Shown here: piece after piece, positions 2,662-60,385 of the stretch
How positions within the stretch are numbered: position 1 is the first letter of the stretch
How the letters are laid out: each line of letters begins with the position of its first letter
From: Candidatus Spongiisociaceae bacterium
Lineage (GTDB): Bacteria > Actinomycetota > Acidimicrobiia > Spongiisociales > Spongiisociaceae
NCBI GenBank assembly: GCA_965219685.1
Contig: CBDCOH010000002.1
Location: 2,336,001 to 2,400,000, forward strand
Reading direction: 5' to 3'
Length of the DNA: 64,000 nucleotides
Notes under the pieces: model-generated
What the model saw: the letters and a program-made list of their open reading frames with translations, nothing else
Told to the model about the DNA's origin: nothing
Databases searched by the model: none
Made by a program: the position numbers and the translations under genes

Positions 2662-2883
2662 TTGCCCAGGGACGACGTTCTACGAGTTCAGGGAAGCGTC
2701 ATCGAGACCCTCCCCAACGCCATGTTCAGCGTACAGATCGACGGAGGGTTGAAAGTCCTCGCCCGTGCATCCGGGAAGATGCGCCGGGGACGCTTCATAC
2801 GCATCCTGCCTGGAGACCGGGTGGATGTGGAACTGTCGGCATACGACCCCAGCCGGGGCCGGATCGTCTGGCGGTACAAGTAG
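2662..2883 (+). CDS. infA: Translation initiation factor IF-1
   Basis: [11 protein letters not shown]...SGKMR...[35 protein letters not shown] start. Confidence 0.97.
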
Positions 2884-3009
2884 TCGGTAGTCGGTAGTCG
2901 GTAGTCGGTAGTCGGTAGTCGGTAGTCGGTAGTCGGTAGTCGAGTTTAACTACAACGTTAACTAGTAAACCAATGAAACTAGTGACTATGGACTAACAAC
3001 TACAGACTA
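2881..3009. repeat. Heptamer array (TAGTCGG)x8+1 facing a degenerate opposite-strand TAGTNNN arm
   Basis: Begins with the infA TAG; minus strand from the tauE stop reads TAGTCTG TAGTTGT TAGTCCA TAGTCAC TAGTTTC. Confidence 0.95.
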
Positions 3010-3747
3010 AAACATCATCCTGACCGCGGATCCTACGGCACCGAGAACCAGAACCCACCGCGCCCAGGCGGCCCCTTTGCTCACCGCCAGTCTGGCCGCC
3101 AGGTAGGCGCCTGAGGAGTACCCCGCCGCCAGGACCAGGCCCAGAGTCAGGTCGACGTGGCCGGCCAGAACGTAGAACGGCAGGACCACCACGGTATAGA
3201 CGAGAATCAGGGCCACTTTGGCGCCATTGCCTCTCAGCAGGTCGAACCCGGAGCCCAAGACCAGGGCGGTTAGCAACAGGATGCCCACACCGATCTGGAT
3301 GAAGCCCCCGTAGAAGCCAATGAACACGAACACGACGGTTCGCCACAAAGGGGAAAGCCGGGTCGGCACGTCCTCTAGCCAGCGGTTGGTGTTGAAGACC
3401 GCCGAGAGGGCCACGAACAGCAAGACCACCGCGAATACACGTTGCATACCCTCCGGCGACAGTTGCGTGGCAGTCCATGCTCCCAGGGCGCTCCCTACCA
3501 GGACCGGAGGCAACAGCCGCCTGACCCTCAGCCACGCGATCGACTTGCCCTGCTGGTATGCGCTTACCCCGGCGATGTTGGCAAAGAGGACAGCGACCCT
3601 GATCGTCCCGTTGGCGATGTTGGCATTGGCCATGAGGGTCACCAACGGGACGGTTAGCGCCGAGCCACCTCCGGCCACGGCGTTGATGAAGCCGGCGCCG
3701 AACCCGGCAAGGAACAGGATGACCAGCTCGAGTTCCGTGAGCTACAC
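3007..3747 (-). CDS. TauE/SafE (TSUP) sulfite-exporter family protein; in-frame TAG right after the likely GTG start
   Basis: LFLAGFGAGFINAVAGGGS N-terminus and IGFYGGFIQIGVG motif; GTG at 3747, TAG at 3744-3742. Confidence 0.85.
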
Positions 3748-3809
3748 CTTTGCGGGAACGACAGGCCACCCGGCCTGCACGAGCGGGGAGAAAACCAAGT
3801 GGCCGGCGG

Positions 3810-58199: not shown

Positions 58200-58536
58200 T
58201 GTCTCTCTTTCTTGTTCTCGGCTTGCCCGAATGGAGGCCGGTGGAATCCCGTAGTGTCGACCGGACTTGCGTCGCGCCCCATCCTACGGGGCTGCCGGAA
58301 CTATCGCAGGTGGTTTCACCGTGACGAGGACAACCCGTGCCTACCAGGTGAAATAGCCAGTTCTAGTCTAGGTGACCGGGCGGCCAGGTTCGCCGGACCG
58401 TCTCCCGCCACGTAAAGGTTGCGACAGCGAGAATGCCATCTCTACGCTGGCACGTACATGTCGTCCACCGCCTTCCGGCGACTGGGGCCTGCGTTGGCGG
58501 TGCTGCAGGAGGGCGACGGACGAGAAAGGGTGAACG

Positions 58537-60288
58537 TTGGCTGCGGTAGGCGAGAACGGGAACGTCCGCTACGAACCGGATGAGAGTCCACCTCCACTGA
58601 TCGCCCTGGGCGCCGGCCTGCAGGCCGGCGCTCTGATAGTGGCGCCCGTGGTGCTGACCGTGGTGATCGTCGCCAGGATTGCCAAGCAGCCGGAGGGTTA
58701 CATCTCGTGGGCCGTCTTCGCCGCGCTGCTGATCAGCGGGATCACGACCGTGATGCAGGCGGTACGGGTGGGACGCATCGGCGCCGGCCACGTACTGATC
58801 ATGGGCACATCAGGAGCGTTCATCGCGGTGTGCGTAGCGGCGCTGGTCCAGGGTGGACCGTCCACGATGGCGAGCCTCATCGCCGTCTCGTCGCTGTTCC
58901 AATTCCTGATGGCCTCCCGGCTGTCGCTGCTACGCCGGGTCTTCACTCCGGTCGTCTCCGGCACCGTGATCATGCTCATAACCGCAACGGTCGTTCCGGT
59001 GATCTTCGACTCGCTCGGCGACGTAGCCGCCGACGCCTCCCCGGCCGCCGCTCCTGCAGCGGCGTTGGCCACCCTGATAACCGTCACCGGACTCGTGCTG
59101 CGAGCGCCGGCCGCATGGCGTCTCTGGTCGCCGGTGATCGGCATCACGGTTGGATGCGTGGTGGCGGCGTCCTTCGGCATCTACGATGCGCAACCCCTTC
59201 GCGACGCCCCCTGGATAGGAGTTGCCATAGGCTCCTGGCCAGGGCTCGATGTCACCCCCGGTGCGGAGTTCTGGGCACTCCTGCCGGCATTCGTCGTGGT
59301 GACGCTGGTAGGAGCCATCGAGACCATCGGCGACGGGGTTGCAATCCAGCGCGTCTCGCGGCGGAGCCCGCGCGCCACCGACTTCCGGGTCGTGCAGGGG
59401 GCTCTGAACGCAGACGGCATGGGGAACCTGCTCTCGGGCCTCCTCGGAACCCTCCCCAATACGACGTACTCGACGAGCATCTCCCTAGCCGAGGTCACCG
59501 GGATCGGGGCACGAAGGGTGGGTGTGGTCATCGGGGCGTTGTTCGCAGCGGTGGCCTTCCTGCCCAAGGTGGCAGCTGTGCTGATCTCCATCCCCGCGCC
59601 GGTGGCCGCCGCCTACCTGCTGGTCCTCCTGGGGCTGCTGTTCATCCAGGGTGTGAAGATCATCATCAACGACGGCATGGATCACCGGAAGGCCACGGTC
59701 GCCGGAGTGTCGTTCTGGGTGGGTGTCGGCTTCCAGAACGGCTGGATCTTCCCGGACCTGCTGGGGGAGGGTTTTCTCGGAGTGCTGTTCGGCAACGGGA
59801 TGACGGCCGGAGCCATCGTCGCCATCGTCATGGTCTTCTTCATGGAGGCGACCGCCCCACGGCGGAGCCGTCTCGAATTCGCTCTGGACATGGAGGAACT
59901 CCCCAGGCTCGGAGCCTTCCTGCGTGGAGTAGCCGAAGAGTACGGATGGGGGTCGGCCGCCGCCGAGCGCCTGGTCCTTGTCGGTGAGGAAACCCTTTCT
60001 AGCCTGCTGGAGGAACCACCCGACATCCCGGAGGAGCCGCGACACCTGCTCGTGACTGCTCGCCCCTATAGCGGCGGGGCCGAACTCGAGTTCCTGTGCG
60101 CATCCGAACCCGGGAACCTGGAGGATAGGTTGACGTACATGGGGGAGGCGCCGGACATAGCCGACGTCCGTGAGGTTTCGTTCCGCCTCCTGCGCCACTA
60201 CGCCTCGTCGGTCCGCCACCAGAAGTATCACGACGTGGACATCGTGATGGTGAGGGTAGACCGGCCGGGAGTGGTGAATAGTGAATAG
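58537..60288 (+). CDS. NCS2 (xanthine/uracil) permease with C-terminal degenerate HATPase/RsbW-like domain
   Basis: ETIGD, ADGMGN, PNTTYS, TG...RRVG NCS2 motifs; ~145-aa soluble tail. Confidence 0.85.
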   Translation: MAAVGENGNVRYEPDESPPPLIALGAGLQAGALIVAPVVLTVVIVARIAKQPEGYISWAVFAALLISGITTVMQAVRVGRIGAGHVLIMGTSGAFIAVCVAALVQGGPSTMASLIAVSSLFQFLMASRLSLLRRVFTPVVSGTVIMLITATVVPVIFDSLGDVAADASPAAAPAAALATLITVTGLVLRAPAAWRLWSPVIGITVGCVVAASFGIYDAQPLRDAPWIGVAIGSWPGLDVTPGAEFWALLPAFVVVTLVGAIETIGDGVAIQRVSRRSPRATDFRVVQGALNADGMGNLLSGLLGTLPNTTYSTSISLAEVTGIGARRVGVVIGALFAAVAFLPKVAAVLISIPAPVAAAYLLVLLGLLFIQGVKIIINDGMDHRKATVAGVSFWVGVGFQNGWIFPDLLGEGFLGVLFGNGMTAGAIVAIVMVFFMEATAPRRSRLEFALDMEELPRLGAFLRGVAEEYGWGSAAAERLVLVGEETLSSLLEEPPDIPEEPRHLLVTARPYSGGAELEFLCASEPGNLEDRLTYMGEAPDIADVREVSFRLLRHYASSVRHQKYHDVDIVMVRVDRPGVVNSE

Positions 60289-60385
60289 TGAATAGTGAAT
60301 AGTGAATAGTGAATAGTGAATAGTGAATAGTGAATTTTTACGACTGGTTGTAGTATTAGTTATTGTTTCTCACCGCTCACCAATC
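60274..60385. repeat. (GTGAATA)x8+1 array overlapping the permease stop, facing a short arm at the hpt stop
   Basis: Counted directly over 60274-60336; hpt ends in TTGG TGAGCGG TGAGAAA on the minus strand. Confidence 0.95.

Follow-up and report, generated by a model that had tools for sequence, protein, structure and literature searches.

The subject of this study is a 64,000-nt stretch of DNA (the whole stretch is hereafter called the window) from a Candidatus Spongiisociaceae bacterium (assembly GCA_965219685.1, contig CBDCOH010000002.1, positions 2,336,001 to 2,400,000), in which tandem arrays of 7-nt units lie at the ends of open reading frames (ORFs). Judged by its LysS relatives, the host genome is of an Acidimicrobiia-type lineage. 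The arrays were found to share a period, a location and a strand polarity, to overlap ORF ends, to be lineage-restricted and, as it seems, to turn over fast. A tandem-repeat census of the 64-kb window was made with Tandem Repeats Finder at a minimum score of 30, which returned 53 rows, and a lag-match score of our own, covering periods 2-15, served as a second detector, with 20 third-order Markov simulations of the window as the null. Genes in the window were called by third-position G+C and named with NCBIfam and Pfam; 63 ORFs were searched against NCBIfam and 24 of those still unnamed against Pfam. These searches upheld the gene names given in an earlier note on the same DNA, namely infA, a tauE-like permease gene, bpa, a livK-like gene, a BMP-family permease gene, clpC, lysS, an NCS2 permease gene and hpt. 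Relatives were obtained from one LysS-protein scan of genome contigs, which gave 80 loci of 3-22 kb each, all around lysS. The closest of them (L001) has 94% LysS identity and the next six have 75-79%. Gene calls in these loci are our own and crude, with start codons the least reliable. The window and the 67 loci of G+C at least 0.58 made up a pooled set of 1,083,357 bases, 11.9% of which was called non-coding, and an array was counted as stop-adjacent when one of its ends fell between -15 and +10 nt relative to a called stop.

The four highest-scoring rows of the census (151, 150, 126 and 124; the next row scored 61) are period-7 arrays at 23297-23389, 48454-48543, 2880-2942 and 60274-60335, with 8.9-13.3 copies and 91-100% matches. 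The first, on the - strand, directly adjoins the TGA that ends the livK-like gene (23390-23392) and consists of eight TGATTGG units followed by five TGAATGG units, so that the unit changes block-wise (13.3 copies, 98% matches). The second, also on the - strand, occupies the whole convergent spacer behind lysS with 12.7 copies of TGAGTGG or TGAATGG. The last two codons of lysS (E, W) and its stop TGA (48534-48536) are themselves array units, and the opposite end of the array lies 5 nt from the stop of a prenyl-synthase gene (48447-48449). The livK-like and lysS arrays form one unit family, which is the only such sharing in the window. At the end of infA (TIGR00008, E 4.7e-27) lies a perfect + strand array of 9.0 copies of GTAGTCG, within the first unit of which the stop TAG (2881-2883) is found; read from the stop, the array is TAGTCGG eight times plus TAGTCGA. 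The NCS2 permease gene ends in a perfect + strand array of 8.9 copies of GTGAATA, so that its final five codons (V V N S E) and its stop TAG (60286-60288) consist of array units.

Besides these four long, near-perfect arrays, the window holds about nine that are short or decayed, in agreement with the claim that both states coexist. The tauE-like gene carries, from its stop codon at 3007-3009, a decayed array on the - strand (2975-3009; TAGTCTG TAGTTGT TAGTCCA TAGTCAC TAGTTTC), which mirrors the infA array over their convergent spacer. Behind bpa (PF10759), the stop TAG at 3894-3896 is followed by two TTAGGTG units (3879-3896, - strand, 2.3 copies); beyond this array a C/A-rich, period-7-like tract (3795-3850) precedes the tauE-like start. 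The BMP-family ABC permease gene is followed directly after its stop TAG (38588-38590) by imperfect NNGCCAG units at 38547-38587 on the - strand (3.7 copies, 76% matches, 9% indels). At clpC, an array on the - strand (44760-44785; GTTATCC GTTATCT GTTATCG GTTGTTA; 3.4 copies, 88% matches) begins 2 nt past the stop TAG (44786-44788). On the + strand the clpC array (44760-44787) reads TAAC-N-GA, with N taking all four bases in turn (C, A, G, T) over consecutive units. The earlier note had described arrays at or beside each of these stop codons, and its description held: the TAG of infA is the start of the first unit, the TAGTNNN units behind the tauE-like gene number five and begin at the stop codon, the TGATTGG and TGAATGG blocks follow the livK-like stop, and the lysS, NCS2 and GTTATCN arrays have the copy numbers given above, though the array of bpa is short and that of the permease, which had been called a nucleoside permease and is of BMP type, has imperfect copies with indels.

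Other sites named earlier fared less well. The ORF at 12745-13080 is indeed followed on the - strand by a G+T-rich tract (12700-12747, G+T 0.76), but it has a loose 7-nt register at most and no detector reports a true array there. Behind hpt (60336-60389, - strand) no detector reported an array either; two TGGTGA-like units straddle the stop TGA (60370-60372), which is separated from the NCS2 array by a G-poor spacer of 34 nt. Two further arrays, given as lying at 18480 and 30866, are real but are not at the stops of protein genes. The first is a decayed + strand array at 18488-18522 (TAGTTCC TAGTCGG TAGTCTG TAGTTTC TAGTTGG), which lies upstream of and antisense to a tRNA-Thr gene (18391-18465, - strand), 23 nt from its 5' end. 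The second, at 30866-30921 on the + strand (decayed GGTGTCG / TCGGGNN, 5.3 copies, 73%), is found in the spacer that separates the stop of the carD-like gene (30961) from the start of ispD (30862). It is upstream of ispD and antisense to it, and for either gene the sense strand of the tract is rich in C. Three short arrays (GTGGGTG, GTCCGTT, TGGTGGC) at 23212-23280 are likewise upstream of a gene, livH (start 23153); they are G+T-rich on the + strand and C/A-rich in livH sense (sense G+T 0.14). At the 3' coding end of folK, 2.7 copies of GGGGGTC lie within coding sequence (52798-52816, - strand), and the folK frame of the window continues past the stop point of the L001 orthologue, the end of which reads differently. 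Exactly at this tract (window 52623-52802), L001 carries a 3.1-kb insertion with two long ORFs (L001 4271-7370).

Period 7 dominated the repeats of the window. It accounted for 16 of the 53 rows of the census, compared with 5, 2 and 1 for periods 6, 8 and 5. At a lag-match score of at least 25, four arrays were found at period 7 and again, as the identical four, at its harmonic 14; the other periods between 2 and 15 had none, and no period exceeded 0.05 arrays in the Markov simulations. Chains of at least three stop trinucleotides with a spacing of precisely 7 nt numbered 10, against 1.0 expected from 30 simulations; chains of at least five numbered seven at period 7, six at the harmonic 14 and zero at the remaining periods from 4 to 15. 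Among the 80 loci, a score of at least 12 was reached by 21 period-7 arrays, distributed over 11 loci, compared with 0, 1, 2, 3 and 2 arrays at periods 4, 5, 8, 10 and 11; the in-frame periods 6, 9 and 12 gave 6, 10 and 10 arrays. A four-base anchor repeated at least four times occurred in 32 regions at period 7 and in 4-6 regions at periods 4, 5, 8, 10 and 11, counts that include four runs of N at every period. When arrays were masked, non-coding DNA gave a value of 0.296 at lag 7 and 0.27-0.28 at adjacent lags, a difference that uncalled genes confound. Both detectors and the stop-chain counts agreed with the claim that period 7 is enriched over 5, 6 and 8, and the period-7 excess is real and specific. 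A period-8 array was observed across the lysS stop of one relative (L056 10934-10975), with GATTTAGA-like units holding TAG; stop-overlapping arrays are thus not strictly heptameric.

The arrays occupied a particular position. In the pooled set, 45 arrays were detected, 39 of which lay in the non-coding fraction. Fourteen of these 39 were stop-adjacent, against 4.7 +/- 2.0 under random placement, and 0 of 2000 simulations reached 14; this check supported the tie to stop codons that had been proposed. Start codons showed no such association in this set (5 arrays against 4.7 expected). Nor did lysS, around which all relatives' loci were taken, appear as a hot spot: on a rough count, about 6 of the 39 arrays lie at lysS, against about 5.6 if arrays were spread evenly over eligible gene ends. 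Detected by eye or by program, a period-7 array follows lysS in 10 of 34 loci.

The arrays also had a polarity. The sense strand was G+T-rich in 13 of the 14 stop-adjacent arrays (two-sided binomial P = 0.0018), with G exceeding C in 10 and T exceeding A in 11. Within the window, all nine of the stop-side tracts had a sense G+T of 0.56-0.87, and the four tracts upstream of genes had 0.14-0.36. The keto/amino asymmetry of the units was 1.40, compared with 1.10 +/- 0.12 in random non-coding heptamers (P = 0.013), while their G-minus-C (P = 0.18) and purine (P = 0.81) asymmetries were those of random non-coding heptamers. The G+T-rich strand is the sense strand for infA and NCS2 on the + strand and for the - strand genes, as had been claimed. 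Replication strand was considered as the cause and rejected: the GC skew has one sign over the window, yet genes of both strands comply, so the polarity follows the gene.

Several arrays overran the ends of ORFs. The LysS C-terminus reads ..HLRPEW in the window and ..HLRPR in L001. For NCS2, 20 of 120 listed homologues were taken and the 11 closest (84-97% identity) were compared at the C-terminus: the array-encoded tail VVNSE was present in none of the 11, nine of which end opposite ..DRPG of the window protein, one two residues earlier and one two residues later. All five arrays that enter an ORF end by at least 3 nt have a unit with a sense stop codon. Among the units of all stop-adjacent arrays, 8 of 14 hold a sense stop (5/5 in the window, 3/9 in the relatives), against 5.0 expected by letter permutation (P = 0.03); on the antisense strand, stop-holding units were 2 of 14 against 2.6 expected, with none among the window arrays. 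Stop-holding units are therefore a rule for arrays that overlap an ORF and not for arrays in general.

Comparison with L001 pointed to a rapid change of units. The two genomes share 90-95% DNA identity, and the alignment breaks exactly at the 3' ends of lysS, clpC and the permease gene. At lysS, the TGAGTGG units of the window correspond to TAGTTGG-type units in L001; at the permease gene, NNGCCAG corresponds to GGCTTGT; and at clpC, GTTATCN corresponds to three GTTGTCC units plus 3.5 copies of CCACTGA. Both unit and length differ at 3/3 array sites common to these two genomes. Over 43 units, 21 between-genome pairs were at a distance of at most 1, compared with 18.2 +/- 3.9 for letter-permuted units (P = 0.26), and none were identical. 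This likeness, which is at the level of composition, agreed with the earlier statement that the unit differs by locus and that no single element is being copied. Families that seemed by eye to recur across genomes (AGT..GG, GCCAG and TGGTGA types) were dismissed because their likeness was at permutation level, and a mobile repeat element was rejected because it requires one sequence at many loci, whereas the units here differ per locus.

Three convergent spacers, picked by eye, hold two arrays each: infA/tauE-like in the window, lysS/prenyl synthase in L001 and lysS/neighbour in another relative (L010). In 3/3 the two arms have a unit in common when each is read along the sense strand of the gene it adjoins (distances 1, 0 and 1), while oriented array pairs at distance 0-1 amount overall to 21 of 1482 (1.4%).

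The distribution of the arrays was traced on a LysS tree of 69 rows built with FastTree, from which ten low-G+C non-actinobacterial loci and the short loci L052 and L066 were left out; L066, which is below the length cut of the tree, carries one array. Arrays were present in 13 of the 35 rows of one well-supported half and in none of the 34 rows of the other. In the eight-row clade of the window, they were found only in the window and L001, with none in the 124 kb of the other six loci, which are samples of 5-22 kb each. On this LysS phylogeny, array-bearing genomes are scattered within one clade. Two rows, L011 (labelled Gammaproteobacteria) and L038 (labelled Bifidobacterium breve), sit among Acidimicrobiia-type or Microthrixaceae-type rows, and judging from this placement their bins are probably mislabelled.

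Heterocystous cyanobacteria carry heptameric STRR repeats. Compared by description only, these resemble the present arrays as dispersed intergenic arrays of few unit types, but they belong to a different phylum and use a small fixed unit set instead of locus-specific units. Three tandemly repeated heptanucleotides are reported from Calothrix PCC 7601 (Rehm et al. 2015, PMC4692102); for this and the other papers cited here, our statements are drawn from excerpts. According to papers that cite Mrazek et al. 2007 (PMC4692102, PMC4679880), heptanucleotides are the commonest long simple-sequence repeats (SSRs) of prokaryotes, three Actinobacteria are among the ten genomes richest in 5-11 nt repeats (PMC4679880), and a stretch of about 7 nt held by the polymerase has been suggested (PMC4692102). 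The long SSRs are likewise head-to-tail units with seven favoured, occur in larger genomes of high G+C, are kept from coding DNA and have been attributed to slippage; of their features, tandem units of 1-11 nt beyond chance, the preference for seven and the exclusion of non-triplet units from coding DNA are found in the present arrays. The stop overlap, sense polarity and mirrored pairs distinguish the arrays described here from that survey as it is known through citing papers. The statement that no equivalent description existed was thus too strong, since a heptamer excess that includes Actinobacteria is already in print. Our literature search, which covered papers but not their supplements, found no description in Acidimicrobiia and no paper that joins "Acidimicrobiia" with "heptanucleotide".

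Two further published systems were compared. The intergenic heptamers GGGAATC of Xanthomonas and GGGGA(C/T)T of Nostoc are over-represented in non-coding DNA; those upstream of an ORF are found on its non-coding strand, few occur between divergently transcribed genes, and related species have them in the same gene neighbourhoods with differences in length and sequence (Rehm et al. 2015, PMC4692102). As far as the excerpts go, the present arrays resemble them in these respects, and also in a genome-dispersed location and in the stop-codon, coding-strand position rule. The published heptamers differ in having one dominant G-tract unit that forms quadruplexes, with four units preferred, against per-locus units in 2 to 13 copies here. 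TAGTCGG, TGATTGG, TGAATGG, TGAGTGG and GTGAATA lack GGG, which occurs only in the minor tracts at 23212, 30896 and 52798, so the quadruplex feature is absent from the principal units. The TAACTGA direct repeats of marine Beggiatoaceae, cyanobacteria and Bacteroidetes (MacGregor 2015, PMC4679880) are also intergenic heptamers with stop trinucleotides in the unit and a patchy phylogeny, and a Csp/S1 register binder was proposed there; in the excerpts they are a single genome-wide unit, mostly a few nt upstream of starts, whereas many units at stops are found here. Searched at up to two mismatches, TAACTGA gave only two overlapping matches in the window, on the antisense strand of the clpC array (TAAC-N-GA). 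In summary, a heptamer excess and a stop-codon, coding-strand rule are already published for other bacteria, and the present arrays are a local, well-marked case. The recurrence of the position and strand rule in two unrelated phyla suggests a general cause.

We somewhat favour the reading that the arrays are slippage-generated heptanucleotide microsatellites filtered at ORF ends. Strand slippage in DNA synthesis would create each array on the spot and alter its length, with no copying of a mobile element, in a lineage that would favour 7-nt slippage. Arrays would survive only in DNA free of code or signal, which in a compact genome would lie mainly just 3' of ORFs, leaving arrays flush with stop codons. 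An array might reach into an ORF only if its unit gives a stop codon in every frame; with a stop-holding unit, the ORF would end within three units whatever the frame. Through this stop requirement, an array that overlaps an ORF would come to have units that match the stop codon of that ORF, and part of the C-poor, G+T-rich sense polarity would be explained. Slippage plus a filter would account for the period and the absence of shared units, for the preference for non-coding DNA and for positions next to stops, for the agreement between unit and stop codon, and for the array-derived tails and the turnover. It is supported by the enrichment of period 7 alone, the 39 of 45 non-coding arrays, the excess of arrays at stops but not at starts, the breaks of the L001 alignment at arrays with other units, the likeness of units at no more than permutation level, the block-wise unit change and the overrun of ORF ends, and a published precedent attributes heptamer excess to slippage. 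From these patterns in the sequence we infer that slippage is probably the generator and that selection may act only as a filter.

A number of observations weigh against this reading. Among stop-adjacent arrays with stop-free units, 5 of 6 are still G+T-rich in sense, and the four window arrays upstream of genes are C/A-rich in sense; a filter alone is inadequate for either. In co-directional spacers, arrays are flush with the stop and not anywhere in the spacer. Arrays stand at the identical three gene ends in the window and L001 despite changed units, and 3/3 mirrored convergent spacers have same-unit arms. In decayed arrays, a fixed anchor of 4-6 nt is kept while other positions vary: TAGT-NNN twice in the window, TAAC-N-GA at clpC, and TGCCTA-N, CTTCCG-N and CCACCA-N in relatives. 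Four features go beyond plain slippage, namely the sense-strand keto bias in units without a stop, the mirrored pairs built of one unit, the conserved anchors, and the retention of sites whose units change. A register-reading protein, a hairpin role and a Rho-loading role were therefore kept as live rivals.

The first of these, which we consider rather unlikely, holds that the arrays are cis-elements in transcripts or single-stranded DNA, read in 7-nt register by an oligomerising single-strand-binding protein, and that they set the behaviour of mRNA 3' ends (anti-termination, stability). The reader might be of cold-shock-domain type, each domain taking one heptamer, or, where arrays have the UAG-N4 form, a ring like that of HutP. 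Precedents exist for both: CspB is reported to bind heptamer direct repeats with one protein per heptamer (MacGregor 2015, PMC4679880), and HutP recognises UAGNNNNUAGNNNNUAG, i.e. UAG-N4-UAG-N4-UAG (PMC2425495). In the excerpts, the HutP sites share UAG at exact 7-nt spacing with free spacer bases, in an RNA element that acts on termination, but they are two triplet sets in one Bacillus operon leader, while here 5-9 units stand at gene ends and most arrays lack UAG. The HutP pattern nonetheless occurs 19 times at four window loci (2881, 2979, 18488 and 60279), against 0.03 expected. The retention of TAGT in decayed arrays while the other three positions vary, the sense polarity of 13/14 arrays and the constancy of gene ends between the window and L001 despite new units also argue for a reader. 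On the other hand, units are unshared beyond composition, so one sequence-specific factor cannot read all of them; copy number spans 2 to 13; and the six nearest relatives after L001 lack arrays in 124 kb. No cold-shock or HutP family, and no other candidate factor, was found among the NCBIfam and Pfam matches of the window ORFs, in line with the earlier note, which saw no responsible gene there.

It is doubtful that mirror-image arrays of convergent genes act as long imperfect hairpins, serving as two-way terminators or 3' stabilisers where a genome has no classical terminators, with single arrays as a by-product or a decayed state. The folds of the mirrored spacers argue for such a role: the infA/tauE-like spacer folds at -41.6 kcal/mol (z -3.18), with 0/200 shuffles as good, and the lysS spacers of L010 (z -4.14, 0/200) and L001 (z -2.07, 7/200) also form long imperfect hairpins. 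The one-unit arms of all three spacers are consistent with it, although template switching could yield them without selection, and the three cases were chosen by eye. Classical hairpin-plus-T-run sites are not enriched in the window (25 against 27.8 expected over positions 1-60000), and plain hairpins stand at the corresponding lysS position in L061, L062 and L012. However, the three longest arrays (livK-like, lysS and NCS2) lack a mirror partner, no T-run follows the stems of the mirrored arrays, and a hairpin reading of co-directional spacers was rejected because they folded no better than shuffles (z -1.43, 15/200; z -1.40, 18/200). An Rfam search of the window returned two tRNAs and nothing more. 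As a separate observation, a similar GC-rich hairpin (cgttttggcgcgg ... ccgcgccagaa) occurs after lysS in two distant loci, L010 (5570-5625) and L069 (about 11400-11480); the L010 copy is enclosed by mirrored arrays.

Rho prefers C-rich, G-poor, unstructured RNA. The complementary, C/A-rich and G-free strand of the arrays might accordingly serve as a Rho loading site on transcripts that enter the 3' end from the opposite direction, whether from a convergent neighbour or as antisense RNA, a role that we regard as improbable. The complementary strands of the lysS and livK-like arrays are free of G and contain 42 C in 80 nt and 40 C in 93 nt, respectively; taken in its C-rich direction, the lysS array begins 5 nt past the stop of the prenyl-synthase gene, and the lack of enrichment of classical terminators is again consistent. 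Against it, the complement of the NCS2 array is C-poor (13 C in 47 nt), the arrays upstream of livH, ispD and tRNA-Thr would load Rho on the sense transcript, and Rho is not known to require a 7-nt period.

The earlier note had also raised a guard against read-through; widened to frameshifts, the idea is that the arrays are kept because they place stops in all three frames directly after the ORF. It agrees with the window, where a stop is present in all five stop-adjacent units when read in sense and in none when read in antisense, and where spacing-7 stop chains are in excess (10 against 1.0), but not with the relatives (only 3/9), which leave 8/14 against 5.0 overall (P = 0.03). Since three units are enough for such a guard while arrays run to 9-13 copies, and since the title of one paper (PMC6764699) reports no evidence of selection for fail-safe additional stop codons in eubacteria, we consider it very improbable. 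Equally remote is a dedicated enzyme, such as a templated or primed nucleotide-adding activity that lays heptamers at gene ends, to which the patchiness within one clade (13/35 against 0/34 LysS rows) and the anchor plus one hypervariable position (TAAC-N-GA, TGCCTA-N, CTTCCG-N, CCACCA-N) would point, because every locus has its own unit and hence no common template, the NCBIfam and Pfam searches gave no candidate gene in the window, and ordinary slippage accounts for the same data.

A broader possibility, to which we give little credence, is that some Acidimicrobiia maintain the tracts as a system for 3' ends, in which a tract is seeded on the stop and its site is kept while the unit drifts, and which is read either by a single-strand-binding protein of cold-shock-domain type with a 7-nt footprint per subunit or by Rho on the complementary G-free strand. 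If so, reading would be by register and keto/amino composition and not by sequence; the tracts would fix where transcripts end and protect gene ends against convergent transcription in genomes that lack classical terminators, and the mirrored convergent arrays would be the double-stranded form of that device.

Several features outside the arrays were also observed in the window. Between 5395 and 12667, a tRNA-Arg (5395-5469) and a run of 15 G (5496-5510) are followed by an apparent inserted island, which contains an AbiEii-type ORF (7411-8355), an IS1380 transposase (9005-10420) and two IS5 copies in inverted orientation (10610-11611, split, and 11628-12521). Parts of it are bracketed by 98-nt direct repeats (8906-9003 and 12570-12667, 97%) and 88-nt repeats (6633-6720 and 8788-8875, 93%). 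A run of 16 C (37596-37611) lies just past an IS110-type transposase fragment (36764-37555). The livK-like binding-protein module occurs three times, in the gene at 23390-24691 and in both halves of a double-length ORF (24761-27259); the halves are 99% identical over 300 nt at a spacing of 1194 nt, and this identity points to a very recent tandem duplication. A BMP-family lipoprotein ORF (42544-44610) is likewise of double length (688 aa), with an internal 975-nt repeat of 82-84% identity. The folB ORF (53317-54165) has an N-terminal Clp_N-like part whose DNA matches the 5' part of clpC (46848-47224) at 82-88% identity; folB thus seems to have received a copy of part of clpC.

What heptamer microsatellites do in bacteria is a long-standing side question, on which this lineage gives an unusually clear view. 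Many independent units obey one rule of position and polarity, and the arrays rewrite the last codons of essential genes, namely lysS and a permease gene. For annotation this is a warning, since C-terminal tails and stop positions beside such arrays are unstable and array-derived. Since array-bearing genomes have close relatives that lack arrays, it is feasible to look by comparison for the factor responsible, whether it belongs to replication, repair or RNA binding.

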